A DNA stretch of 63,855 bases. Source: Candidatus Levyibacteriota bacterium. Its GTDB lineage: Bacteria; Patescibacteriota; Microgenomatia; Levybacterales; UBA12049. The DNA is taken from NCBI GenBank assembly GCA_038205015.1, contig JBBRCK010000006.1, forward strand, positions 1 to 63,855, read 5' to 3'. Every line of letters starts with the position of its first letter. The first letter of the stretch is position 1. Below, piece by piece: positions 10,271-55,925 of the stretch. The notes beneath the pieces are model-generated. The model was not told where the DNA came from. It saw nothing but the letters and a program-made list of their open reading frames with translations, and ran no database searches. The position numbers were made by a program, and so were the translations under genes.

Positions 10271-10690
10271 TTATTTAACACTTTTAAATCCATTATTTAG
10301 CTTAATTGCTAAAAGAAAAACTAATAACATGACAATTTGGCAAGCTAGACAAACCGGGCAGATTACTTTTAATATAAATATTTCCTGTAAAGTGATAGAA
10401 AGACAAAAAATCATTCCAAAAGTCGACATTCCCAAAATTATTTTTTGTTTTTTTAAAATTGACGATATTAAAATCACAATATAACCTACTAACCCAATTA
10501 AAGAAACAGGAATTCCAAAAAGAGTTGATAGACTTCCCTTTGTTACTGCGTCACAATTTACTGTAGTGTTTATAAAACATGATTCTATTATTGGTTTTGT
10601 AAGAAAATTATAAAAAAGATAGATTGCCAAAAATATGCCTAAAGTAGATAGTCCAATTAACATTTTATATGTATTCTTTTTCTTAAGCAT
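10271..10690 (-). CDS. Vitamin K epoxide reductase (VKOR) family disulfide-formation protein
   Basis: Loop Cys pair ESC...NCDAV, LFGIPVSLIGLVGY, active-site CPVC, four TMs. Confidence 0.9.
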   Translation of the reverse strand: MLKKKNTYKMLIGLSTLGIFLAIYLFYNFLTKPIIESCFINTTVNCDAVTKGSLSTLFGIPVSLIGLVGYIVILISSILKKQKIILGMSTFGMIFCLSITLQEIFILKVICPVCLACQIVMLLVFLLAIKLNNGFKSVK

Positions 10691-42597: not shown

Positions 42598-43950
42598 ATG
42601 GAAGAGACAAAAGACCTTTGGAAAAACATATTAGCCGAAGTAGAACTAGAGGTATCTAGAGCTAACTACTTAACTCTATTTAAAAGAACGCAGCTTGTTT
42701 CTATAGAAGAAGACGTCCTAACGGTTGCCGCATCTTCCTCGATGATTATTGATCTTTTGCAAAGAAGGTTTTATGAAATCATTAAAAAATCTGCTGACAA
42801 ACTCTTGGGAAAAAGCGTAAGAATTGTATTTATCCCTAAAACTATTGTGGATAGTTTCGAAAAGCAGGATGAAAAAGCCGGCCCGCTTTTTGAATCGGAA
42901 AACAAACCAACGCCCCAACACCTACAAAGAGTAAGACCGGACTACACTTTTGAAAACATGGCGGTTTCTTCCAGTAATCAACTGGCCTTTGTTAGCGCCT
43001 CAACCGTTGCCAGCAAACCAGGAGTTGCATACAATCCTTTGTTTATTTATGGCCCAACCGGCGTTGGAAAGACTCATTTAATGCAGGCAATTGCCAATGA
43101 GGTTTTTGCTAAAAGCCCGGATAAAAAAATTCTCTATACCACCAGCGAAGAGTTTACCAACGAAGTCGTTGAGGCGATTAGAACTAATAACACCTCTTCG
43201 ATGAAGAAGAAGTTTAGAAATATCGATTTACTTATTATTGACGACATTCAGTTTATTGCCGGAAAAGAAAGAGTACAAGAAGAACTTTTTCACACTTTCA
43301 ACATCCTTGTTGACAACGCGTGCCAGATTGTCTTGTCATCTGATAGGCCACCGGCTGAAATAAAGCAAGTTGAAAAAAGGCTGCTTTCCCGTTTTTCAGG
43401 AGGATTAACTGTTGACGTTCAATCGCCCGACTTTGAACTCAGAACGGCAATTCTTTTAATTAAATCCAAAAAATATGGCATTGGCTTAACAATAGATGTT
43501 GCAAAACTAATTGCTCAAAAAGAACAAGATGCCAGGGGACTGGAAGGATTACTTTTGCGAATTATTACCCAGGCCCAAGGAAAAGGTGGGGAAATAACTG
43601 AAGAATTAGTATCTTCTGTTTTATCTTTAAATAAAGAGGAAAAGTTAAACAGCTTTCATCCGGACGAGTTAATAAAAAATGTCTGCAACTATTATAGCGT
43701 TAAAGAAACACAGCTTAAAAGTCCAAAGAGAGACGCTTTTTTGGTAAGACCAAGGCAAGTGGCAATGTTTCTTCTTAAAAAAGAGCTTAATTTAACCTTT
43801 GTAGAAATTGGCAACTTATTAGGAGGAAGGGACCATACAACAATTATGCATGGAGTGGAAAAGGTTGATAACATGTTGAAAAACTCTTTAATTTCGGAGG
43901 ATATCTTGGGGATTCCAAAACTTAATGTTGATAAAAATGTTAATAACTAA
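42598..43950 (+). CDS. dnaA: Chromosomal replication initiator DnaA
   Basis: YNPLFIYGPTGVGKTHL, IDDIQF, QEELFHTFN, RLLSRF, GGRDHTTIMH. Confidence 0.98.
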   Translation: MEETKDLWKNILAEVELEVSRANYLTLFKRTQLVSIEEDVLTVAASSSMIIDLLQRRFYEIIKKSADKLLGKSVRIVFIPKTIVDSFEKQDEKAGPLFESENKPTPQHLQRVRPDYTFENMAVSSSNQLAFVSASTVASKPGVAYNPLFIYGPTGVGKTHLMQAIANEVFAKSPDKKILYTTSEEFTNEVVEAIRTNNTSSMKKKFRNIDLLIIDDIQFIAGKERVQEELFHTFNILVDNACQIVLSSDRPPAEIKQVEKRLLSRFSGGLTVDVQSPDFELRTAILLIKSKKYGIGLTIDVAKLIAQKEQDARGLEGLLLRIITQAQGKGGEITEELVSSVLSLNKEEKLNSFHPDELIKNVCNYYSVKETQLKSPKRDAFLVRPRQVAMFLLKKELNLTFVEIGNLLGGRDHTTIMHGVEKVDNMLKNSLISEDILGIPKLNVDKNVNN

Positions 43951-44074: not shown

Positions 44075-45181
44075 ATGAAAGTTTCTTTTCTTTCCAATAA
44101 CCTTTCAGACAAAATTTCTTTTTTAAACCACGCTGTGTCAAGTAGGGGACAGCTTCCCATCCTGTCTAATTTCTTATTAGAAGCAAAGAAAGGAAAGCTT
44201 AGTATAAGCGCAACGGATTTAGAAATTGGAATAACCACCAGTATTGCCGTAAATGTTGAGAAAGAAGGAAGGACAACGGTTCCTGCTAAAAACTTTTCAG
44301 ATTTATTACTTAACTTAGGAAATCAAAAAGTGACAATATCACAAGATGGAGAAACACTTAAGTTGGTTGGAGAAAAGACAAAAGCCTCTTTTCAAACAAT
44401 GTCTTCTGATGAATTTCCAAAACTATATGAAGAAAAAGGAGAAGAGTTCATAGAAATAAAAAAGAAAGACATAGAAAAGTTTTTACTAAGAGTGGTTTTC
44501 TCATCAGCAATTGATTCTTCCAGACCGGCTCTTTCCGGAATACTTTTAGACAAAGAAAAAAACGAAGCTGTAATGGTTGCAACAGATGGATACAGGCTTT
44601 CTCTTCAGAAAAACGTTTTCAAGACAACAGAGAAGCTTGAGAAGCCCATTGTAATCCCCGCCAGAATTTTTAAAGAACTGTTGTCAATTAAAGAAGACGA
44701 AGAAAATATAAAAGTGTTTGTCTCTGAAAAAAATAACCAGATTTTGTTTAGCCAAGGAGAAACTGTTTTAGTTGGTAGATTAATAGATTCTGAATACCCG
44801 GAATATGCAAAGATAATACCGGAGAGCTTTGCAATAAAAACAGAGTTTAACAGAGAAGAACTTTTAAGCGCAATTAAAATCTGTTCAATTTTTGCCAGAG
44901 AAACAGCAAATATAGTTAAGCTTTACATTGAAAAGAACAAAATTATTGTTTCAGCGAATTCGCCATCAGTTGGGGAAGATTCGGTAGAAGTTGAGGCAAA
45001 AACAACCGGAGGAGAAAACGAGATTGCTTTTAATGCAAAGTACCTTTTAGATATATTGTCATTTTTAAATAAGGACGAAATAGTTTTTGAAATGAACGGC
45101 CCTTTAAATCCCGGAGTGTTTAAAATTAAAGAGGACAACTCATTTCTCCACTTAATAATGCCAATTAGGGTGCAGGAATAG
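44075..45181 (+). CDS. dnaN: DNA polymerase III beta sliding clamp
   Basis: PILSNFLL, ATDLE, VATDGYRL, GRLIDSEYPEY, IAFNAKYLLD, HLIMP. Confidence 0.97.
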   Translation: MKVSFLSNNLSDKISFLNHAVSSRGQLPILSNFLLEAKKGKLSISATDLEIGITTSIAVNVEKEGRTTVPAKNFSDLLLNLGNQKVTISQDGETLKLVGEKTKASFQTMSSDEFPKLYEEKGEEFIEIKKKDIEKFLLRVVFSSAIDSSRPALSGILLDKEKNEAVMVATDGYRLSLQKNVFKTTEKLEKPIVIPARIFKELLSIKEDEENIKVFVSEKNNQILFSQGETVLVGRLIDSEYPEYAKIIPESFAIKTEFNREELLSAIKICSIFARETANIVKLYIEKNKIIVSANSPSVGEDSVEVEAKTTGGENEIAFNAKYLLDILSFLNKDEIVFEMNGPLNPGVFKIKEDNSFLHLIMPIRVQE

Positions 45182-45737
45182 CTTGCAACGGTTCTTGAAA
45201 AACATCTGAAGGTTTTTTCGTTACTATTCCAGCAAAAGGAGCAACATTTTTTAGAAATGTATCTTTTTCTTGAGGCGCAAACCTTATAAACGAATAAGCA
45301 AAGCTTCCTTGTGTTTGTATGGCAACACCCTTTTTATAAAACACTAACCAAGTGTTTTCTGGGATATTTTCATCAAAAAGAGAATCATAATTTTTTCCCA
45401 AAACCTTAACCTCTTTTTCTACTAACGTGTTGTCGGGAAGAGATTCTTGTGTGGCAACAACAACACCGTTTTTTGACCACACATTATCATATTGGAATAA
45501 AACAGGACTGTTGTAGGAGATCTTTTTTCCTAAAGTTGAATTATCGGTTGCTGCAGGCTTACCATAGGAATCGATTACCTTTGATTCTTTTGTTATCCCA
45601 GGATTAATGCTATTAAACCTGGAAACAATATTACCGTTATTTGTTAATGAATTAAAAATTATAAAGATAAAAACAACTCCCACCAAGACGCAGGCTGTTA
45701 ATAATAAAAATGTTGTTTTATTTTTAATGAAACTCAT
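45165..45737 (-). CDS. Single-TM extracellular protein (possible immunity/inhibitor)
   Basis: N-terminal TM; INPGITKESKVIDSYGKP resembles BLIP/SmpA-type repeats; overlaps the peptidase gene end by 14 nt. Confidence 0.5.
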   Translation of the reverse strand: MSFIKNKTTFLLLTACVLVGVVFIFIIFNSLTNNGNIVSRFNSINPGITKESKVIDSYGKPAATDNSTLGKKISYNSPVLFQYDNVWSKNGVVVATQESLPDNTLVEKEVKVLGKNYDSLFDENIPENTWLVFYKKGVAIQTQGSFAYSFIRFAPQEKDTFLKNVAPFAGIVTKKPSDVFQEPLQAIPAP

Positions 45738-46881
45738 AATTTGGAGATATATACGTATGTACCCAGGCGTATGTTCTTGGACAATCCCTCTTAAAATTAT
45801 TTACTGTTCCAGCCGGACCCTTATGATAATTATAAACATAAAGCGCCATTGCCTCTGCCATTGATTCATTAATTTGATTACGACGGCTTTGGTTGCAATA
45901 GGACGGTAATCCATATGTTTTCATACATTTACCAATATAGCAAGCGCTTCCGTCTCCCGAAAGATAGTCAACATTGAATCTGTTGCTCAAATTTCCGTCT
46001 CTATGTTGAAACATATGGGTTGTTTCGTGTGTTATCCAATAATTACCGCTGCCGGAATAATAAGTAGTGACCATTATGTTTGCATTAATTAGTTGGGCTT
46101 GGTTGCTCCATCCGGTATAACCGCAAGCGTGACCAGTATTCTTACTGTTTGAAAAAAGTTCAGCTCGATAAGCAGTACTTATAAGTCTATTTTTCATGGA
46201 TGGAGAGTAGGTCATATGGTCCCAAATTTTCCAAAAACCAATCTTAGATTGGCAAGTTGGCGTTTGGGATGCGTTTCTGGGGTATGGGGACATGCCACAG
46301 TCATATTGCCAAGTTGTTCCCGCTATTACCCTTGCATTAAGGTCACTTTTAAGCTTAGAGTCTACGTTGCTACACGTTGGCAGAGTATGATTTCCTCCTC
46401 CCGCTGGGGGTGCTGGGGGAAGAGGAACGCAGCAAACAGGAGCTGCTGTTGCAGAGCAGGTATAATCACCAGAAGTATCTGCCGGAGCGCTCGCCGGACA
46501 ATTAGCTGCGGTTGCTACACAAGTGTTCCCCGTAATACTCATGCAGTCTACGCCCGTTCCAGCATTTACAGTATCTCCTCCGCTTGTCGCAGCAGTAATT
46601 ATAGCGGTAACCATTAGTACAAAAAAAATAATACCAATTATTATTAGAGCGATTGGTCCCCAAACTTCAATTGTTGAGATAAGAGCTGTTCCAATCTGCC
46701 TAACAGCTTGTTTTCCTGCTTGTTTTACAAACTTTTTTCCAACATTTTTGGCCAGCTGCTTTCCTCTCTTTGAGATTTCTCCTTTAACCTTATTTTGAGC
46801 TTCAGATTTAAGATGCTCAACAGTATTATGGGCATGTTCCTGTGGGGAATTGTTATTTTCGTTTTCTTCTTCTTGAGCCAT
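45724..46881 (-). CDS. Membrane-anchored Zn-metallopeptidase-like protein with a 6-Cys module
   Basis: Charged helical N-terminus, TM, C-x7-C-x6-C-x13-C-x7-CC, Pro-rich linker, HETTH and downstream NESMAE. Confidence 0.6.
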   Translation of the reverse strand: MAQEEENENNNSPQEHAHNTVEHLKSEAQNKVKGEISKRGKQLAKNVGKKFVKQAGKQAVRQIGTALISTIEVWGPIALIIIGIIFFVLMVTAIITAATSGGDTVNAGTGVDCMSITGNTCVATAANCPASAPADTSGDYTCSATAAPVCCVPLPPAPPAGGGNHTLPTCSNVDSKLKSDLNARVIAGTTWQYDCGMSPYPRNASQTPTCQSKIGFWKIWDHMTYSPSMKNRLISTAYRAELFSNSKNTGHACGYTGWSNQAQLINANIMVTTYYSGSGNYWITHETTHMFQHRDGNLSNRFNVDYLSGDGSACYIGKCMKTYGLPSYCNQSRRNQINESMAEAMALYVYNYHKGPAGTVNNFKRDCPRTYAWVHTYISPNYEFH

Positions 46882-46898
46882 AATTTAATAATAGCAAA

Positions 46899-48812
46899 TT
46901 AATCAAGAGTTATCTCAGGCTTATTTGTCGTTTCGGGCGTTGGATCAGGAAGATCGATTGGTTTTACTTGGGCAGCATCGATTCTTTCCCTTTCTTCTTT
47001 TTCCGCTTCTTCTTTAGCCTCTGTTTCTGCTTTTTTTAACTCCTCTTTCTCTTCCGGATTGGAGGTAATCATCTTGTGTTCAAATGGAGCAGCGATTATT
47101 TGCATTGCCACATGGCTTTGTCCTGCAAAAAACAAACCCTCACCCGGATTTGCAGACAAGAGTAATTGCTTCTCTCCTGCTGTAAGGTAAAAAAGCTCAG
47201 CCACTAAATCAATTTCGGTTGGACTTTGTTTTAAAAGCATCTGGATTGAGGAATTTGATAAAATTGCTTTTCCATAATCGGTTGAGAGAAAATCTTGAAC
47301 ATCTTGAGTGGCCGTTGTTAGGGCAAGATAATATTTTCTCGCTCTTTTGGCTACGCTGTAAACAAAGGACGCTGAATCTTCATATTTCATCATTACCCAT
47401 GCCTCGTCAAGGATTAACACTCTCTTTTTGAGAGTTTTCCTAACCTTAGTCCAAATAAAGTCTAAAATTACGTGCATTGCAATCGGCCTAATTTCCTCTT
47501 CCAAAGCTTTAATGTTGAAAACAGTAAAAGGATTTTTAATGTCAAAATTAGATTGCTGGTTAAAAATACCATTTAAACTTCCCTTAATAAATCTTTCAAG
47601 GCCTAAGGCCAAATCTTTGGCTACCTTATCTTCCATGCCCAGCAACACTTTATATAAATCTTCCATTAATGGCGGAGTATTTTTTTGAGTTTGTGGATCC
47701 TGCGTAATTCCTTTTTGCCTATAGGTTTCAACTAAAGCTCTATCTAAAATGGCATCATGTTCGGGATCTAGTTTTCCTAAAACAATTTTTAAAAGACCGT
47801 GTAATGATAGGATTTTTAATCCAAGCTCATTTTCTCCCGCTTCGTATACCTCCGAAAGATCAAAAGGGTTAATTTTTATCGGAGAGTTTGAAGAAAAAGT
47901 TACCTCTTCTCCCCCCATAGCTTTAGTCATTTCCGAATATTCTCCTTCAGGGTCGATGATTATAACTTCAGCCCCAAACATAAACTGCCTCATTGCCTCA
48001 AGTTTGATTAAATAAGATTTTCCAGCTCCTGATTTTCCAAAAACAACCTCGTTGGCATTTTCCAAAGAAAACCTGTCAAAGATAATTAAAGATCCGTTTT
48101 GCTGGTTAATTCCATACATCAGACCCTTGTCTTGCGCAAGCATGGCGGATGTAAAAGGAAAAGTTGATGCTAAAGACGTAGTGTCCATATTTCTGGTAAT
48201 AAATAATTTATCCTGACCTAGAGGAATGGTCGTTTTAAATCCAGCTTCCATTTGTAGCGCCGCAGGTCTTGGGTCAACCAGGATTGAGTTGAGCGTGGTT
48301 TTTAATCTTTTTGCAGCCTCATTTAAATCCTCAATTTTTTCGGAAAATAGAGTAGCGTAAAGACTAAATTGAAAAAAACGCTCCATACCTTTTGCTAATT
48401 CTTCTTGAACAGCTAGCGCATCTTCCAGCGAAGCGCTTACCTTTGGGTCTACGTCTAAGCCCTCATCCTCAGATGACATAATAGTTGCTTCCATTTCCGA
48501 AATTTTTCTTCTTAAATCAGACAATACGTCGGCAGAAGATGTGGGATAGATAAACATTGACACATTCATAGAATGGTCAAACTCAACCAATGGTTCAAGC
48601 CAATTGGGAGAAACGAATCTTGGGTAGCCACTAATAAATACTGTTTTGTAAAATTTACCACCGACCTTAACATGATTAAAATCAATCTCGATTTCTGCCG
48701 GTGCAATCAGATCTGGAACCGAAAAGGCAGCTTCTTGCTTTACTTCTATTTCTTTTTCAACAGGTATTTGTTTATTCTCGATGTTACCGGTAATTTTTTT
48801 CTTACCAAACAT
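46899..48812 (-). CDS. VirB4/TraE-like type IV secretion ATPase
   Basis: FPFTS, IIFDRFSLENAN, GKSGAGKS, IIIDPEGEY, LILDEAW, KRARKY, ATQ. Confidence 0.9.
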   Translation of the reverse strand: MFGKKKITGNIENKQIPVEKEIEVKQEAAFSVPDLIAPAEIEIDFNHVKVGGKFYKTVFISGYPRFVSPNWLEPLVEFDHSMNVSMFIYPTSSADVLSDLRRKISEMEATIMSSEDEGLDVDPKVSASLEDALAVQEELAKGMERFFQFSLYATLFSEKIEDLNEAAKRLKTTLNSILVDPRPAALQMEAGFKTTIPLGQDKLFITRNMDTTSLASTFPFTSAMLAQDKGLMYGINQQNGSLIIFDRFSLENANEVVFGKSGAGKSYLIKLEAMRQFMFGAEVIIIDPEGEYSEMTKAMGGEEVTFSSNSPIKINPFDLSEVYEAGENELGLKILSLHGLLKIVLGKLDPEHDAILDRALVETYRQKGITQDPQTQKNTPPLMEDLYKVLLGMEDKVAKDLALGLERFIKGSLNGIFNQQSNFDIKNPFTVFNIKALEEEIRPIAMHVILDFIWTKVRKTLKKRVLILDEAWVMMKYEDSASFVYSVAKRARKYYLALTTATQDVQDFLSTDYGKAILSNSSIQMLLKQSPTEIDLVAELFYLTAGEKQLLLSANPGEGLFFAGQSHVAMQIIAAPFEHKMITSNPEEKEELKKAETEAKEEAEKEERERIDAAQVKPIDLPDPTPETTNKPEITLD

Positions 48813-49480
48813 TATTTTTGTACCTCCTCTACTACTTGCTGCTCTGGTTTTACCCCATTTTCGACCTCATAGTCATTAATTTTAGCATCATTAAAGATTT
48901 CATAAAAAAGTTTAATTAACTGCTCTTTTCCTAAGGTTTCTGCTTTTAAATTCAGTCTTCTAATTTGTGTATGTAGGCTTTCTGCTTTTGAGCGAAGAGA
49001 AGCCCTGGCTCCAACCAAAAACAAATCTTGTGCACTACTAACTCTTACTTGCTGAGATGCTCCGCTTAAGCCCTTTTCCAAAGAAGAGTAGGAAATAACA
49101 ACATAGAATTTTTTATCCAAAATTGTATTTACTTTTACTAATTCTGCCACAAAGTCCCTATACATTCCTATTTGAGTTGCCAGCAATTGGTTTTTTGAGT
49201 TCGCTTTTTCTTTTTCAAGAAGTGTTAAGTATGATGCAACATTCAATTTTTTACTTCGAATTACTATTTGGATAGGGAAAGAAAGAGAATTTAAAAGTGC
49301 TGCGTAGGAATAGATTTTTACGTCTTGCTCCTCAGCGGAGAGCAAGGTAAAATTTGTCGCTTTAACCTCGATAACGATACAAGCGCTTCCGCCTTTTAAA
49401 ATTACCACATCATCAACAATGTCTAAAATCTCAGTAAAGGCCTGGGTAGTATTTGATATTTTTTGAGCAGTTTTAGCCAT
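48812..49480 (-). CDS. VirB4-associated (TraC-N-like) T4SS component
   Basis: STQ-like NTTQAF, VKATNFTLLS..EQ, LNSLSFPIQI, KKFYVVI; coupled to VirB4. Confidence 0.7.
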   Translation of the reverse strand: MAKTAQKISNTTQAFTEILDIVDDVVILKGGSACIVIEVKATNFTLLSAEEQDVKIYSYAALLNSLSFPIQIVIRSKKLNVASYLTLLEKEKANSKNQLLATQIGMYRDFVAELVKVNTILDKKFYVVISYSSLEKGLSGASQQVRVSSAQDLFLVGARASLRSKAESLHTQIRRLNLKAETLGKEQLIKLFYEIFNDAKINDYEVENGVKPEQQVVEEVQK

Positions 49481-49482
49481 AA

Positions 49483-50712
49483 TTAATTAAAAAGAGATCT
49501 CCTTAATTCTTCTCTTGAATCAACAGAAATAACCTCAATTGGTAAAATTATTTCACCCTTTACCACAAAAGTAACGCTGTCAAATTTGTTCTGTACTCTA
49601 GGGTCTTCAAACTCAATAGTATAGTTCCCATTTGTTAGGGGAGTAGCTGAGGCAAATTGTCCCAAAGCATTGGTTTTAAAGGCTCTAACTGCATTACCCT
49701 GGGTATCTTTTACTTCTACTAAAATATTGGAAAGTGGATTCCCTCGGGGGTCTTTAATAATGCCGGTAACAATATTTGGAAACTCAGGTGTAGAAGGAAG
49801 GCCAACGCTTTTTGCCATGTTTTGAGGAATACTGCGGACATATTTTGTTTCTTGTGGAGCTTCTTGTTGTGCAACAGAGGCTGAGAAAAACGGTTTGCCT
49901 TGATTAGCCATTGTCCTTTGTAAATTAATTAACTTACTTTCCAATTCTTGTTTTTGGAAAAGAAGATCATTAAGATTTTTCTGAAGCTCCAATACTTTTT
50001 GGTGCGCATTTAAATATTCCTGTGAGTTTGCCTGCGGCTGCGAAGCCTCTTTTGCTTTTGCCTCTTGAAGCTCTTTTTCCAAAAGCGCAGCTGTTTTCTG
50101 CAAGTCTTGGTCTCCCTGTTTGTTTGCATAGTCATTGGGATTAAGCTGCAGGGCTGGTTGCTGTTGTTGCGGAGCTTGCGCTGCAGGGCTGGTTTTGTCA
50201 GCATAGGCGTGTTCTGCTACATATCCAGGAGCACTTGGAGCAGTGCTTTGACCATATTCGTTTAGTGACTGGAAAAAGACAGTCTCTTTCTTATCAAGCT
50301 TATTCTTGCCTTTTGGAAGATTATCTAAAAATTCTCGAAGTTGTTTCTCCGACATGTCTGAGATCGACAACCTAGATTTGTTAAATTGATTTATTTTTGA
50401 AGGATCGGAAACTTTATCATCTACTCTTTGGTAATAATATTTTGTGGGAGACATTACAGCCTTAATAAAATTGACAATCATCTTATCCATTGGTCTTCCA
50501 TCGATTGGTAAAAATGACAAAGCAGCCCCGGCTGCCCCAAAAATTAACATAAATGGAATTTTTACTATAAAAATAATTGGGGAAGCATAGGTAAGCCAGG
50601 CGAAAAATGCCCCAGTAGCAACATAAGCAAATTGCTTCACGGTCATATTTCCAATTAATTTAAATTGAAACCCGGTAATATCCTGGGGGATTGGGTGATT
50701 ATTTATTTCCAT
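49483..50712 (-). CDS. PrgI-family protein with coiled coil and a C-terminal CnaB/carboxypeptidase-regulatory-like domain
   Basis: HPIPQDITGFQFKLIGNMTVKQF, DGRPMD; GIIKDPRGNPLSNILVEV...TNALGQF...NGNYTI. Confidence 0.8.
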   Translation of the reverse strand: MEINNHPIPQDITGFQFKLIGNMTVKQFAYVATGAFFAWLTYASPIIFIVKIPFMLIFGAAGAALSFLPIDGRPMDKMIVNFIKAVMSPTKYYYQRVDDKVSDPSKINQFNKSRLSISDMSEKQLREFLDNLPKGKNKLDKKETVFFQSLNEYGQSTAPSAPGYVAEHAYADKTSPAAQAPQQQQPALQLNPNDYANKQGDQDLQKTAALLEKELQEAKAKEASQPQANSQEYLNAHQKVLELQKNLNDLLFQKQELESKLINLQRTMANQGKPFFSASVAQQEAPQETKYVRSIPQNMAKSVGLPSTPEFPNIVTGIIKDPRGNPLSNILVEVKDTQGNAVRAFKTNALGQFASATPLTNGNYTIEFEDPRVQNKFDSVTFVVKGEIILPIEVISVDSREELRRSLFN

Positions 50713-50851
50713 ATACAAAAAGCATATAACGTGAAAAATCTGCTTTCAAGATTATCAAACTATGTCAAATAATATTAAAAAAGGAAATTTCCGTGAAAAA
50801 TCTTTTAGCTAAATTCCGCAAGCTCTGCAGCGTTTTGGGAGGCATAATGGA

Positions 50852-51163
50852 TTAACAGGTTTTGAAAGAAAGTGGGTGCGAGGCGTTGAGGCATCCAACC
50901 CCGGTTATACCGGCGATAAGATTTATTATAAAAAATGAAAGAAACATTAAAAATAGTCCAAGGACTGCGAGAGCAATTGTTTTTCTTGCCTGGTCAAGTT
51001 TTTTAGCATCTCCTCCGGAAATTAAAAACCTTATTCCACCAATAATTATAAAGATAACCCCCACAGAACCCGCTAAAAGCAGCGCCCAATAGATTAAGTT
51101 TGTGATTAATATTGGGATGCAACCGATTGTTGCGACTCCGTTTTTTCCACAAGACCAGTTCAT
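50852..51163 (-). CDS. TrbC/VirB2-like pilin (minimal)
   Basis: GGIRFLISGGDAKKLDQARKTIALAVLGL two-TM hairpin. Confidence 0.8.
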   Translation of the reverse strand: MNWSCGKNGVATIGCIPILITNLIYWALLLAGSVGVIFIIIGGIRFLISGGDAKKLDQARKTIALAVLGLFLMFLSFFIINLIAGITGVGCLNASHPLSFKTC

Positions 51164-51226
51164 AGTTTTAGTCTAGCAAAAAAAAAGAAAAAAGTAAATA
51201 AATTACGAGTTAAGAAATTTTAAGAA

Positions 51227-51661
51227 TTATGGAGTTAAAGAGGGCATTGTTAGCTGGCTTAGGTTTTTACCGATGAAGAGGAACAAAATGACGTTTAATA
51301 TAAGATAGGATAAGAAGATTATAACTAATCCGATTATAGCTGCAACGATACTATCTCTGGCAGATGAAACAGCTTGCTTGTCCCCTCCGGAAGTAAGCCA
51401 TCTTAATCCGCCTAATACGAGATAAAGAAGAGCTGCGATGGTTGCAACTACGAATATTAAATTAATCACAGTAGTAATAATATTTCCAACACTGGCTCCG
51501 GTAAAGCCGCATAATATACTAAAATCTCCCGTAGCGCATCCGCCAATTGCTGCTGCATATGAAAAAGATGCTAATGTGAGGTATGCTGTTGCGGGTGCTA
51601 ATACTGTTAAAATTTTTTTCATGTCTATATTAAATGTAAAGAGTTTTTTAATGTTTGTCAA
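51227..51661 (-). CDS. TrbC/VirB2-like pilin with signal peptide (ATG 51622 is an alternative start)
   Basis: GGLRWLTSGGDKQAVSSARDSIVAAIIGL. Confidence 0.8.
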   Translation of the reverse strand: MTNIKKLFTFNIDMKKILTVLAPATAYLTLASFSYAAAIGGCATGDFSILCGFTGASVGNIITTVINLIFVVATIAALLYLVLGGLRWLTSGGDKQAVSSARDSIVAAIIGLVIIFLSYLILNVILFLFIGKNLSQLTMPSLTP

Positions 51662-51722
51662 TACCCTAATTTGTGGCTAATTATTGACTTTAACTAAAAA
51701 AGAAATAAAAAACTTAACGTTT

Positions 51723-53021
51723 TTAAAGACGAAATAATTTAAGAATAATGTTTACTATTAAATAAGCAAGAAAAACAATGATCAGTCCGATAATTGCAAA
51801 AACTATTTTTTGTCTGGCGCTACTAAGCTTTTGCCTATCTCCTCTGGAAGTAAGCCAATCAACGCCTCCCCAAACAAGATAAAAAAGAGCAAGAAGAATT
51901 GATATAAAAATAAGTAGGTTAATTATTAAGTTAATCATCGATTGATGCCCTACTGCGGCGGGAGCATTACCAGGCTTTGGTCCAACAAGAAATCTGGCAA
52001 TATCACCTAATGCGGTTGCCACAGGAGCGTTTCCCCAAGTACCCCAGTTAGTGCCCGTGCTGTTTACGTTTGAAACCGAAGGAGGAAAGTGGCAACCTAA
52101 GACATGATTTGGGTCACATACTAGGCCATTTACCGTATCGCAATAGCTTGACATATAAGTTGTTCCGTCGGTATCTGCAGTTATACAATTGGTTCCCGCT
52201 GGAGCGCCAGATTTAGGCGAGCAAGCAGGGGCAGGGTCTGTTCCGGTAAATTTGCAATTTGCCGGACAATAATGACAAAGGGTATCCGTACCGGGTCCGC
52301 TATTACCACCGGTTGATATAGTAAAAGTTTTTGGATTACAAAGAAGATTACTTGAGTCTGCAAAGCCGCAGCTCTTCGATACTTTAATCGTGTAAGATCC
52401 AATACCTAAGGTGCCAATATTCACGCTGCTTTTAAGATCTGATATCTTTCTGCAGTCTCCTCCGCTAGGAAGAGAGTTCCCGGTTCCACCATCAAACCAA
52501 ATCCTTAAATCGTCATTCGGGTTATAATAGCTTGGAATACCTATTAATTTAAAAGAAACGGTATCATTATTTGAATAACCAGGACTTCCAGTTGAAGATG
52601 TTTCTATAGTACAGGAACTCCCTAATTGAGAAGGATCAATGATTTGTATGGGCGTTAGAACATCGCAGACCTTGGTGGTAGGGCCGGAAGCGTTAAACAC
52701 GCCTGCAACAAGAGAGCCGGGAAGCAATGCTCCATTAGTAGTAGCTTTTCCTTTAAAGTTGCCATTGGTGTCAAAAGTAATGTTAGCAACGGGAAGAATG
52801 TTTGTTTCTTGACCGTCAGTTCTTCCCCAGAACATATTGTACTGACTGCTTCCGCCAGCAATTCCAGAACAAGTTAGGTTAAAGTCGAAGTCAGTTGAGC
52901 TTACAAGAATAGCACCTTCGGCCACCTCAATCGCACCGCTTATAACCGCTGCCAGTACAGTTTGACTTGTAAATTGAAAGAGTAAAAAGAAAAAAGTAAG
53001 AAATAAGAATATTTTTCTCAT
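51723..53021 (-). CDS. Extended pilin: signal peptide, beta-rich/Cys ectodomain, C-terminal VirB2-like hairpin
   Basis: C-terminal GGVDWLTSRGDRQKLSSARQKIVFAIIGL. Confidence 0.7.
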   Translation of the reverse strand: MRKIFLFLTFFFLLFQFTSQTVLAAVISGAIEVAEGAILVSSTDFDFNLTCSGIAGGSSQYNMFWGRTDGQETNILPVANITFDTNGNFKGKATTNGALLPGSLVAGVFNASGPTTKVCDVLTPIQIIDPSQLGSSCTIETSSTGSPGYSNNDTVSFKLIGIPSYYNPNDDLRIWFDGGTGNSLPSGGDCRKISDLKSSVNIGTLGIGSYTIKVSKSCGFADSSNLLCNPKTFTISTGGNSGPGTDTLCHYCPANCKFTGTDPAPACSPKSGAPAGTNCITADTDGTTYMSSYCDTVNGLVCDPNHVLGCHFPPSVSNVNSTGTNWGTWGNAPVATALGDIARFLVGPKPGNAPAAVGHQSMINLIINLLIFISILLALFYLVWGGVDWLTSRGDRQKLSSARQKIVFAIIGLIIVFLAYLIVNIILKLFRL

Positions 53022-53024
53022 ATA

Positions 53025-54500
53025 CTATTGTCCAAAGAGATTTAAGATATCAACTCCGATAAAATTTAAAATTGAAAAAGCAAAAATTATAAAAATTAAT
53101 CCAACAATTGCCGCGGTAAGTTGTTCTTGTGCTTCCCTAACTCTGTCGGGATTTCCCTGCGAAGCAATTAATCTGTAAGCAGATAAAATGATTAGCAAAG
53201 CCGCAATTCCTCCGGCAATCGACAAAATAACTGCAAACAATTTTGTGATTAGAGATTGCGGATTGGTACTAATATCACCAAGTGCTGTACGGCAGGGAAT
53301 AACATTGCCTCCTTTAGTATTGCATGGAAGCTGGCCGCTTGTGAATCCTGGGCCCAAATCAAGAGTGTTGCTTTTGCAGCCTAATCCATTGGGATAGCAG
53401 GTTTGAGTGTCTGGATCACAGGGTGCCTCGGTGTAATTAGTGGAATAGCTTTTTTTATTAGTTGCGGCGTCGGTTATTATATAGCATTTTTTAGCATTAG
53501 TGCTAGCTGTTGAATCATAAGTATATCCACCAGGACAGGTTGGGCAAGGAGCAATGGGTTCAATATTACCGGGAACACAGCAAAGCGTTTTAGTACCAGT
53601 GCAATTATAGTTTCTCGCGTCGGGAACTCCTTGTGCGCTTACACAAGAACTAGTATTGGCAGCAGTGTTTGCTTGGCAAAGTACCGGGCAGTCGGGTTTT
53701 GGCGGTGCTGCTTTGCATGTTCCACCAGTAGTTGTAGGAGTACAGCCATAAGTACAGTCTTTTGTATTAGCCGGGCTACAGTAGGGTGCTAACTTGCATG
53801 TTCCACCTTGGCAAGAGTAGGTAGAATTACAACAACCACCAGCTGCGGTACAGGCTCCTCCAGTAGTAGGTTGGCAGCTTGCAAATTTACAACAAACGGT
53901 TCCGGTGCAATTCGTAGCACCAGCGATAGTTCCATTGCCGTTAGCGGTGCAAATTTCTTTTGTTGTACAACTTGATGTATATCCGGTAGGAGCTAAAGAC
54001 GCGCAGGTTACAGTCTTAACTTCTACGCAGCATCGGGCTTGGGTTGTGCAATTAGAACTGGGTTGAAAATTTCCTGTGCAGGAGCCAGCAACTTTGCAGC
54101 CTGCAGTATGAGTAGTGTCTGCATAAGTGGTACAGGCTGGAGCAGCTACACATTTAGTCCCACTACAAACCTGCGTATTACTATTACAAGTGTTTGTGCA
54201 AGAGACGGTTCTATTGCAATTATTTGTAAAAGATCCGCATTTATAATTTTTTGCCGTGCACGAGCTGCTTGTCTCGCAAGTATTCCATTGGCAACATATA
54301 TTCCCTCCTGTGCAATTAAGGGCTCCAAGGCTTGTTCCCTCCCCAGTTTTGGTGCAGAACGCTACAGAGGAGCATGAAGAGCCAGTAAGGGGAGCAGCGC
54401 CGCAGGCTGCAGCTTGAGAGACATTTTTAGCAGGCGCAAAAGCAAGAAAAATTATAAATATAGAAAATAAAGATAAAGTAAAAAGAAGCAGTCTTCTCAT
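53025..54500 (-). CDS. Cys-rich extended pilin (about 50 Cys) with C-terminal VirB2-like hairpin
   Basis: C-terminal SAYRLIASQGNPDRVREAQEQLTAAIVGL; ATG 54500 follows TACGAT by 6 nt. Confidence 0.75.
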   Translation of the reverse strand: MRRLLLFTLSLFSIFIIFLAFAPAKNVSQAAACGAAPLTGSSCSSVAFCTKTGEGTSLGALNCTGGNICCQWNTCETSSSCTAKNYKCGSFTNNCNRTVSCTNTCNSNTQVCSGTKCVAAPACTTYADTTHTAGCKVAGSCTGNFQPSSNCTTQARCCVEVKTVTCASLAPTGYTSSCTTKEICTANGNGTIAGATNCTGTVCCKFASCQPTTGGACTAAGGCCNSTYSCQGGTCKLAPYCSPANTKDCTYGCTPTTTGGTCKAAPPKPDCPVLCQANTAANTSSCVSAQGVPDARNYNCTGTKTLCCVPGNIEPIAPCPTCPGGYTYDSTASTNAKKCYIITDAATNKKSYSTNYTEAPCDPDTQTCYPNGLGCKSNTLDLGPGFTSGQLPCNTKGGNVIPCRTALGDISTNPQSLITKLFAVILSIAGGIAALLIILSAYRLIASQGNPDRVREAQEQLTAAIVGLIFIIFAFSILNFIGVDILNLFGQ

Positions 54501-54539: not shown

Positions 54540-55877
54540 TTAGTTTGCAAACTTAAATCCCCTACCTTTAACGGTTTGAATATATTTTGGTTCATTAGGA
54601 TTGTTTTCAATTTTTTTTCTAAGCCTAAAAATTAACTGATCTAGAGCTTGGTCGGTTACTCCAAGTGTAGTTTTTTGTTCTCCCCAGACTGCATTAATAA
54701 TCTCTTCTTTTTCCAAAACTTTGTCTTTTTGGGTTAGTAAAAATTTAAATAACTTAAACTCCAAAGAGGTTAAAAGATCAGAAATTATCAAATCGTTTTT
54801 TTTAATTTCATTGGTGTTTTCGTCAAAAATTATTTCCTCTTTAGCTTCTACAATACTAGTTTTAACGACAACTGTATGTTTAACAAAATCTTGGAAAAGG
54901 GGAATTGTTGGTGCTCCGTTAAAACACAGAAATATATTTTCCAAGAAAATCGGTTCCTGTTTTTTGTCGATAAAATATTGTTGTTCGGATGGATTTAAAC
55001 TGTTCCAAATTGCAAAAAGTGAGCTTCTAATTGGCCTTTGACTTAATAGATAATCGATTAATTGTCTTTTATTTTCCGGTAAGTTTTTATCCAAAGACAA
55101 AATTGTTTCAAGACAAAGAGTAGTTAATCTTCCATGCCCAGCAGTTAGAGTAATGGTTTCATCGATTATTTTCTTCTCTATTTTTTTACCGGTTACTTTT
55201 TCTAAATGCGAAATTCTAAAATCTAAGCCCACTTTATCTAAAATGGGTAAATATATTATTCTTCCGGCAACATATTCGAAAAAATCCGCAAAAAGAGAAG
55301 GTTCAAGCAAGTCTTCCAAGGGTCTACTTAAAGAAAAAATAACAGAGAAGTGATATTTTGCCCTATTTCTTAAAACCCTGAGATTGGCAAAAAATTCAGA
55401 CGTTACCGTTGGAACATACTCTTCGAACCTGTCAAAAAGTAAAACTAACGTTAGATTTTTTTCAATCGCCAAATAATCAACGGTTTTTTTAAGTCCCTGA
55501 AATAAAACCAATTCGTCGTTAAACTCAACACTTTCTTTAAAGATTTTATTAATCTCTAAGTATTCGTTTTTTAATCCTCTTTCTCGCAACGAATCTAAGA
55601 TTCCCAAAAAAATGAACTTATTAACGTCGGACATAGGTTTTTTTCTGATTTCTGAAAAATTTAAAAGGACAAAATGGAAGTTTTTTTGTTTTTCACTCAA
55701 ATGTTTAATGCGGATGTTTCTGTTGTAAGAGAGAAGTCCCAAAAGGTTTGACCTACCAACGCCGGCAACGGAAACTATTTGACAAGAATTTCCTTCTTGG
55801 ATAAAAGAAATAATTTTAGTAATTTCTTCAAATCTGGTGGTGTCGGGGTACAGGCTTTCAAAGTGTTCAAGCTCCAT
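54540..55877 (-). CDS. Degenerate P-loop NTPase fused to an OmpR-type winged HTH (paralog 2)
   Basis: SVAGVGRS (Arg for Lys), LLFDRFE; LEKEEIINAVW...ALDQLIFRLRKKIE...IQTVKGRGFK; ATG 55877 follows TATAAT by 6 nt. Confidence 0.7.
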   Translation of the reverse strand: MELEHFESLYPDTTRFEEITKIISFIQEGNSCQIVSVAGVGRSNLLGLLSYNRNIRIKHLSEKQKNFHFVLLNFSEIRKKPMSDVNKFIFLGILDSLRERGLKNEYLEINKIFKESVEFNDELVLFQGLKKTVDYLAIEKNLTLVLLFDRFEEYVPTVTSEFFANLRVLRNRAKYHFSVIFSLSRPLEDLLEPSLFADFFEYVAGRIIYLPILDKVGLDFRISHLEKVTGKKIEKKIIDETITLTAGHGRLTTLCLETILSLDKNLPENKRQLIDYLLSQRPIRSSLFAIWNSLNPSEQQYFIDKKQEPIFLENIFLCFNGAPTIPLFQDFVKHTVVVKTSIVEAKEEIIFDENTNEIKKNDLIISDLLTSLEFKLFKFLLTQKDKVLEKEEIINAVWGEQKTTLGVTDQALDQLIFRLRKKIENNPNEPKYIQTVKGRGFKFAN

Positions 55878-55925
55878 TAATCTATTATAGTTCATCTTCC
55901 ATTAATCTTAAACAATGCCGAGTGT

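Follow-up and report, generated by a model that had tools for sequence, protein, structure and literature searches.

A recurrent six-cysteine module on a giant type IV secretion pilin and a virB4-adjacent peptidase-like protein of a Candidatus Levyibacteriota bacterium

The stretch of DNA analysed here (the window: positions 1 to 63,855 of contig JBBRCK010000006.1, Candidatus Levyibacteriota bacterium) encodes a type IV secretion system (T4SS), and two proteins of this cluster contain the same small module with six cysteines, the last two adjacent. The module stands four times in a giant VirB2-like pilin (P503; 53025-54536, minus strand) and once in a protein with a HEXXH motif that is encoded directly after virB4 (P385; 45724-46881, minus strand). 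Judged by its sequence, the six-Cys unit is a real domain family of about 36-40 residues, and its fold is probably similar to that of beta-defensins. We think it rather probable that the unit is a compact extracytoplasmic domain with three disulfides, a shuffled building block used as a binding or targeting module on a pilin and an enzyme of one T4SS-like machine.

Recurrence of the six-cysteine unit

The units had been described in an earlier note made from the DNA letters, and the translated open reading frames (ORFs) reproduce exactly the four spacings claimed for the pilin and confirm the single copy in the metallopeptidase-like protein. In P503, module 1 (residues 45-82, 54291-54404, C-x9-C-x5-C-x13-C-x5-CC) directly follows the signal peptide, and it is succeeded by module 2 (residues 135-170, 54027-54134, C-x11-C-x5-C-x9-C-x5-CC), module 3 (residues 178-216, 53889-54005, C-x11-C-x5-C-x13-C-x4-CC-K-F) and module 4 (residues 283-320, 53577-53690, C-x3-C-x10-C-x13-C-x6-CC-VP). 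The copy in P385 (residues 113-151, 46429-46545, C-x7-C-x6-C-x13-C-x7-CC-VP) lies between the membrane anchor and the catalytic domain and is followed by VP as in module 4; all five are on the minus strand. The regular expression C-x3-12-C-x4-11-C-x8-15-C-x4-8-CC, applied to all six frames of the 727-kb genome, gave seven matches: these five and two on contig C5, all in three secreted proteins. The third protein is P0005, which has 125 residues (G000:C5:26102-26479; L007:8103-8480; plus strand) and consists of a signal peptide and two C-x6-C-x5-C-x12-C-x5-CC-x-F units.

The earlier note had made its proposal depend on recurrence beyond chance CC spacing, and such recurrence is what we find. 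Shuffled P503 ectodomains produced four matches in 0 of 20,000 cases (at least one match to this loose expression occurred in 7%), and shuffled P385 ectodomains produced one match in 23 of 20,000. CC doublets are at chance level (5 observed, 5.7 +/- 1.9 expected), therefore the signal lies in the ordered spacing. A hidden Markov model (HMM) was built from eight copies of other genomes (the foreign-copy HMM), using a cysteine-anchored alignment in place of a MAFFT alignment that misaligned the cysteines and made a poor model. It was tested against composition-matched shuffles with the option --nonull2, because the default composition correction of HMMER misses most copies in Cys-rich proteins. 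The two best proteins of the genome under this model are P0005 (E 8.5e-12) and P385 (E 0.005). The P385 module scores 25.4 bits against a shuffle maximum of 14.3 and the whole P503 ectodomain 109 bits against 42.7 +/- 8.1, neither value being reached in 1000 shuffles. Modules 1 and 3 of P503 score 21.8 and 22.6 bits; module 1 rises to 24.6 bits at most, and module 3, the best pilin copy, to 30.7 bits (0 of 1000 shuffles) with a model that adds two small-protein copies of its own genome. Modules 2 and 4, found by the regular expression, match the foreign model with 4 bits (partial) and 7-9 bits, respectively. In terms of these profile scores, modules 1 and 3 and the P385 unit are family members, and modules 2 and 4 are divergent copies. 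In module 4 the C-terminal two-thirds alone match and the first half is divergent; its C-x3-C start recurs in the HEXXH orthologue of genome G502 and in one G115 protein.

An HMM made from the four P503 units alone finds P0005 (E 0.003) and does not find the P385 unit significantly, therefore the link between pilin and enzyme runs via the family and is not a direct pairwise similarity. With this qualification the idea of a shuffled module common to pilin and enzyme holds, since it recurs in shuffle-tested profiles, in orthologues and in other genomes. When 15 copies from different proteins are aligned, all six cysteines coincide, and the copies commonly begin with C-x-S/A-x-G-G-x-C and finish with V/I-CC-x-F. 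Pfam and NCBIfam contain no model for the unit.

Copies in other proteins and genomes

Fifty-eight VirB4-anchored loci from named genomes were scanned with the same expression; 39 of them hold 130 pilin ORFs. Nine ORFs matched, of which seven are pilins (six with the pilin family PF18895 above its 26.6-bit cut-off, and that of L082 under it with 23.8 bits) and one, in L074, encodes the protein that immediately follows virB4. N-terminal pilin units are supported in L048 (29.2 bits), L078 (37.6 bits) and L082 (21.2 bits), and the unit of the giant pilin of L074 scores 16.4 bits; none of these values is reached in 500 shuffles. Support is modest for the units of L054 (reached by 3 of 500 shuffles) and of the L074 peptidase (1 of 500). 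Cys-rich pilins of similar size that escape the expression are mostly at background score, thus the unit is not a by-product of cysteine richness. The matches in L047, L091 and L096 are not supported by the profile and were not counted as copies. One of the Cys-rich negative-control pilins (L067:400-1473, plus strand), which the expression misses, scores 17.1 bits (1 of 500 shuffles) and may hold a variant unit.

The module is C-terminal, after the two-helix hairpin, in the pilin of genome G025 from the same family (L016:8522-8899, minus strand; E 1.7e-4 per genome, gene cut by the contig end) and in that of L054 (L054:4685-5146, plus strand). Both termini of a VirB2-type hairpin face outward, which fits the occurrence of modules at either end of the pilin. 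The L074 protein after virB4 (L074:10874-12013, plus strand; metagenome-assembled genome JAJXYH010000004.1) has the layout of P385, with a charged N-terminus, a transmembrane helix, a six-Cys unit and a Pro/Gly/Ser linker, and carries Peptidase_C39_2 instead of the HEXXH domain; the enzyme thus appears to be swapped behind a kept targeting part. The supposed link of the module to one machine gains from these data, as it occurs on T4SS pilins of several other Candidate Phyla Radiation (CPR) genomes and on a Peptidase_C39_2 protein in the slot after virB4.

Further copies are found in other proteins. P0008 has one unit behind a conserved leader that it has in common with P0005, large Cys-rich secreted proteins of the genomes G115, G173, G201 and G326 have one or several units, and the two-unit proteins P0012 (L104:2075-2482) and P0011 (L105:597-884) were found by an exhaustive profile search. 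The latter two lie on contigs of 65-76% GC beside genes for an extracytoplasmic function (ECF) sigma factor, caspase-like Peptidase_C14, subtilisin-like Peptidase_S8, eCIS_core and WD40 proteins. These contigs are non-CPR, and the family exists outside the CPR. P0005, P0011 and P0012 all have Phe as their last residue, two positions beyond the final CC, and the mature part of P0005, about 83 residues long, is cationic, about +5 by our own count from the sequence. The unit is rare: it occurs in 1 of 60 relatives, in 10 of 401 class genomes at E <= 0.01 and in 2 of 401 phylum genomes at E <= 0.001. The profile search of 1.84 billion representatives gave 6 matches at E <= 0.001, because a 40-position profile is too short. 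A locus search with P0005 as query gave no related loci, and a word-indexed homologue search with the P503 ectodomain returned P503 itself as sole match, its homologues having come via the VirB4-anchored loci.

P0005 has a 43-residue leader (MAYKSFNQRFPTFKWVLLLA...NVSTNTQQHA), present once in the source genome, which is kept in five proteins of other assemblies (P0006-P0010; the N-terminal stretch that matches is 58-84% identical, and 43% in P0010). The mature parts of these five proteins are unrelated, therefore the conserved leader carries swapped cargo.

The giant pilin and the HEXXH protein

The ORF of P503 has 503 residues; its likely start is the ATG at position 54500, which gives a protein of 491 residues with 50 cysteines (about 10%), and the database copy of P503, P0001, begins MRRLLLF. 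A signal peptide, a Cys-rich ectodomain of about 380 residues and a C-terminal two-helix pilin hairpin follow one another, and the signal peptide is thus predicted to place the ectodomain outside. The T4SS_pilin domain (residues 425-493, 53058-53264, minus strand; PF18895, 38.2 bits) has two transmembrane helices around a short cytoplasmic loop, and P503 also matches the Mbov_0395 pilin-like family of NCBIfam (E 5.5e-7). A domain score above the cut-off and a place in an array adjoining virB4 make it a VirB2-like T4SS pilin. Its last 177 residues are 48% identical to those of the 483-residue giant pilin of L074, and the N-terminal Cys-rich parts are unalignable, which suggests a conserved stalk with variable heads.

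Between the P503 modules there are other Cys-rich segments (residues 87-134, 221-282 and 331-420), one of which holds a half-unit, CTAAGGCC. A membrane-proximal C-P-x-C-P-x-G-Y-T-Y region of P503 is common to the L074 pilins, with varying heads before it, and L047 and L048 have it in a looser form (C-x-x-C...G...Y-x-Y).

P385 (385 residues) consists of a Lys-rich cytoplasmic N-terminus, one transmembrane helix (about residues 74-98), the six-Cys module, a Pro-rich linker and a predicted zinc metallopeptidase domain (about residues 166-385). Given the Lys-rich N-terminus and the single helix, module and enzyme domain are therefore predicted to lie outside. The zinc-binding HEXXH motif reads HETTH (residues 285-289, 46015-46029, minus strand), and H285, E286, H289, E339 and E343 are invariant in 7 orthologues. 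P385 has no match in Pfam, NCBIfam or the PDB sequences. Gluzincins combine HEXXH with a further Glu ligand downstream and a fold like that of thermolysin. The AlphaFold model of its catalytic domain, with a predicted local distance difference test (pLDDT) score of 80-95, has as its top Foldseek match the putative zinc metallopeptidase 4l7a (probability 0.99, E 2.5e-3), with weaker matches to thermolysin-like elastases, and we predict a gluzincin-like zinc metallopeptidase. Every HEXXH orthologue is encoded between virB4 and dnaN. P385, P0003 and the G502 protein have the module, and four others (P0004 and those of G466, G529 and G507) lack it. P0003, 41% identical to P385, has it at the same position, and P0004, 47% identical, has the linker alone there, so that the P385 module is a clean insertion relative to P0004.

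Predicted fold and comparison with defensins

The beta-defensin fold has three antiparallel beta-strands, three disulfides and optional helices. AlphaFold2, run on the first P0005 unit with a 15-row alignment, gave a model (mean pLDDT 82.8) with strands at residues 10-13, 23-24 and 34-38 and a short helix at 14-19. Its best whole-domain Foldseek matches in the PDB are all of the beta-defensin fold, with template modelling (TM) scores of 0.49-0.62, root-mean-square deviations of 2.1-3.4 A and E values of 1.6-8, which are not significant for a 40-residue query. They comprise platypus defensin-like peptide 1 (1b8w, TM 0.57/0.55), human beta-defensins 2 (1fd3) and 1 (2nlp), avian beta-defensin 3 (AvBD3, 7lzl, TM 0.59/0.62) and sea-anemone SCRiP (7lx4, TM 0.62/0.61). 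The remaining PDB matches are local ones to large unrelated proteins and one to a short scorpion toxin (TM about 0.25). Independently of AlphaFold, the profile was compared with 177,635 distinct PDB sequences, and all 15 matches with E < 10 are either tick carboxypeptidase inhibitor (TCI) or human beta-defensin 1 (HMMER E 0.6-5.5). TCI is the best of them (E 0.6), with both of its domains aligned; hhalign against the beta-defensin 1 chain gave P 8.9e-4, and CVSSGGQC of human beta-defensin 1 aligns by profile to C-x-S-x-G-G-x-C of the module. The Pfam model Defensin_beta (PF00711) does not match P503, P385, P0005, P0011 or P0012.

The beta-defensin likeness claimed in the earlier note therefore stands in part: the predicted structure finds beta-defensin folds as its best whole-domain matches, and every one of these matches is individually non-significant. 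The AlphaFold model may be biased by the cysteine framework. We consider the fold to be probably beta-defensin-like, the likeness being consistent across methods and not proven; homology to animal defensins is likewise unproven, and the data do not separate homology from convergence.

The beta-defensin spacing quoted by the earlier note is C-x6-C-x4-C-x9-C-x6-CC, and the usual loop ranges are roughly 4-8, 3-5, 9-13 and 4-7. The canonical copies in P0005, G025, P0011 and P0012, with 6-5-11/12-5, are within these ranges, whereas P385 (7-6-13-7) and P503 (9-5-13-5, 11-5-9-5, 11-5-13-4 and 3-10-13-6) are partly outside. The module thus resembles animal beta-defensins in its six-Cys framework ending in CC and in G-x-C before the second cysteine, and differs from them in longer and more variable loops (as many as 11 residues in loop 1 and 13 in loop 3), in being bacterial and in being mostly an embedded repeat of large membrane-anchored proteins. 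Nor do the embedded copies of P503 and P385, which are nearly neutral, look like free cationic secreted host-defence peptides; P0005 alone is free and mildly cationic. TCI (1zlh_B, 3d4u_B), with 75 residues and two tandem beta-defensin-fold domains, is similar to P0005, P0011 and P0012 in its two-domain layout. TCI is an animal protein, and the ending CC-x-aromatic belongs to the bacterial domain as such.

Beta-defensins and other trans-defensins pair their cysteines as C1-C5, C2-C4 and C3-C6 and have been described as arising exclusively in animals (PMC7203481). The bacterial defensins reported in PMC11561630, such as xanthusin, are small disulfide-rich secreted peptides and all of the cis type. 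They have a cysteine-stabilised alpha/beta structure with the pattern C...CxxxC...C...CxC, whereas the C...C...C...C...CC of the module matches the trans-defensins. A bacterial beta-defensin fold was not found in the literature searched, an absence that holds for that library only.

Genomic setting

The window is contig C6 of the 727-kb genome, which has 21 contigs, and its VirB4 is 65-83% identical to that of Candidatus Levybacteria/Levyibacteriota metagenome-assembled genomes. The T4SS cluster, of the Gram-positive/CPR type, occupies 45.2-55.9 kb on the minus strand. In cluster order it begins with an OmpR-type regulator (54540-55895), followed by P503 and three further pilins of 432, 144 and 103 residues (50852-53021). 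PF18895 is above cut-off in all three (30-35 bits), and in the regular-expression scan they are without the six-Cys module. Next come a PrgI-family protein with a CarboxypepD_reg domain (49483-50718), a TrsD-like protein (48812-49480) and the VirB4-type ATPase (46899-48812; PF19044 TraG P-loop, E 9.7e-29), which is directly upstream of the P385 gene. The PrgI/VirB3-family protein has a Gln/Ala-rich coiled extension, and its CarboxypepD_reg domain is Ig-like and C-terminal. A 190-residue protein with a single transmembrane helix (45165-45737), for which no family match was found, overlaps the end of the HEXXH gene by 14 nt. Its gene stands beside the HEXXH gene in most orthologous loci, even in those without the module, and is absent in G466 and G507. 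The cluster is directly followed by dnaN (44075-45181) and then by dnaA (42598-43950).

PMC12102498 describes ori-proximal T4SS of Patescibacteria with arrays of 2-11 pilins, homologues of peptidases and lysozyme that follow virB4 in a cultivated relative, and a requirement of the T4SS of this relative for epibiotic growth, one system having been tested. The window likewise has four tandem and highly divergent pilin genes, an adjacent virB4 and dnaA and dnaN close by, and its cluster is an ori-proximal T4SS with a pilin array of the kind described there, with P385 in the position of those peptidase and lysozyme homologues. T4SS hydrolases of the VirB1 type that bear wall-binding modules (LysM, Peptidase_M23 partners) are also listed in PMC12102498. 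P385 resembles them in carrying a small accessory domain on an envelope-directed enzyme beside virB4, and the six-Cys module, like such accessories, serves different catalytic domains, HEXXH here and C39-like in L074. The six-Cys module is unrelated to these modules in fold and sequence, and the P385 enzyme belongs to no Pfam family. Cys-rich cargo domains on pilins, and a module shared with the enzyme after virB4, are found here and are not described in the passages of PMC12102498 consulted.

Two VKOR genes and two for DsbA-like proteins (Thioredoxin_4) are present in the genome, at 10304-10663 of the window (minus strand), G000:C1:20038-20932 and G000:C3:58325-58822, with one VKOR/DsbA pair adjacent on C1; therefore disulfides can form outside the cytoplasm. 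For a genome of this size it is a sizeable investment in extracytoplasmic disulfide formation.

Discussion

Our data are best explained by a domain of about 36-40 residues that would be stabilised by three disulfides outside the cytoplasm, probably in a beta-defensin-like fold, and reused as a shuffled block: four times in the presumably outward-facing N-terminal part of the giant pilin, once between the membrane anchor and the putative catalytic domain of the zinc peptidase right after virB4, and twice in the free 125-residue protein that is predicted to be secreted. Such a unit would be compact and protease-resistant, and by binding it would hold the pilin tip and the envelope-cutting enzyme onto a ligand of the cell envelope, either that of a partner cell or the own wall. 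From this arrangement we infer a possible role in host recognition or adhesion.

One could argue that the units are structural spacers alone, rigid protease-resistant beads which stiffen or lengthen the pilin ectodomain and the enzyme tether and have no ligand. The P503 copies are indeed rich in T, S, G and A, nearly uncharged as read from the sequence, and stand among other Cys-rich segments; the loops differ widely in length from copy to copy, a different Cys-rich cargo is found on many related giant pilins, and the N-terminal region of P503 cannot be aligned with its closest giant-pilin homologue. However, a free two-domain secreted protein has nothing to space, and the surface motif formed by C-x-S/A-x-G-G-x-C and CC-x-F is kept across distant proteins. 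Because of this free-standing form and these conserved motifs we favour binding, and grant the pure spacer a modest chance of being right.

The module could also be a peptidase inhibitor or regulator like TCI, with the fused enzyme (until release) or a peptidase of the partner cell as its target. TCI is the top PDB sequence-profile match with both domains aligned, P0005, P0011 and P0012 share its two-domain layout and end in Phe two residues past the last CC, and in P385 and L074 the module directly precedes the peptidase domain. Against this, the E value of the TCI match is 0.6, and the module stands in front of catalytic domains of two unrelated types (zinc HEXXH and Cys C39-like) as well as on enzyme-free pilins, which disfavours an inhibitor specific to one enzyme. 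The idea of a C-terminal tail acting as in the tick inhibitor was down-weighted because CC-x-F is found at internal modules as well (CCRFT in P0005 unit 1, CCKFA in P503 module 3) and is thus a feature of the domain, not of a free tail. We regard the inhibitor as unlikely.

Human beta-defensin 3 binds lipid II, and an antimicrobial or envelope-attacking effector that binds lipid II or membranes in the manner of defensins, delivered by pilin and enzyme, could be envisaged. Fold and profile resemble beta-defensins, the free P0005 is cationic, and the T4SS of the cultivated relative is needed for its epibiotic growth (PMC12102498). This effector is nevertheless quite improbable: P503 and P385 have neutral copies that form part of large proteins, which disfavours a killing peptide, and no amphipathic or strongly cationic surface is evident from the sequences. 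The nearly uncharged P503 copies fit a structural or binding role better. Chance spacing in Cys-rich, low-complexity proteins that share no domain, to which the cysteine content of P503, the CC count at expectation, the failure of the P503-only model to find P385 and the loss of many copies under composition-corrected HMMER might point, is hardly credible in view of the shuffle tests, the seven genome matches confined to three secreted proteins, the recurrence in orthologues at the same position and the Cys-rich control pilins without a match.

Several observations weigh against the binding module with a beta-defensin-like fold that we prefer, and they set its bounds. Modules 2 and 4 of P503 are partial matches of 4-9 bits, the copies in L047 and L091 are unsupported by the profile, and the P385 module is at pLDDT <50 in the full-length AlphaFold model. 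All defensin matches are individually below significance, and PF00711 hits P0008 alone (13.8 bits, E 0.059; cut-off 21). When viral models were searched with Foldseek, unrelated proteins came up with E values just as weak, therefore the weight rests on the consistency and the whole-domain TM scores of the PDB matches only. Seven of the 130 pilin ORFs (about 5%) carry the module, which is missing from most giant Cys-rich pilins of related loci; it is thus an optional cargo, one among several, and not a required part of the machine. Its free-standing copies in non-CPR bacteria mean that it is not T4SS-specific.

It is new here that the module is shared by a virB4-adjacent enzyme, of which two catalytic types occur, that it stands in four copies on a giant pilin in Levybacteria, that free proteins with two units exist and that the family occurs outside the CPR. 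CPR bacteria are attached to other cells, and their ori-proximal T4SS with pilin arrays was reportedly needed for this in the one system tested (PMC12102498). A portable disulfide-stapled module on a pilin tip and on an envelope-cutting enzyme would be an expressible candidate for a contact or recognition element, and the free proteins with two modules are of a length that permits direct synthesis and structure determination.

A bacterial domain with the framework and the predicted fold of beta-defensins bears on the origin of the trans-defensins, which current reviews place in animals. True homology of the module with the beta-/big-defensin domain of animals is conceivable and rather doubtful. 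If it held, the trans-defensin superfamily would have a prokaryotic branch, represented in the CPR by outward-facing cargo of T4SS pilins and virB4-adjacent peptidases as well as by free tandem two-domain secreted proteins, the latter form also being found in high-GC non-CPR bacteria. In that case either the fold would have originated in bacteria or genes would have passed between animals and bacteria.

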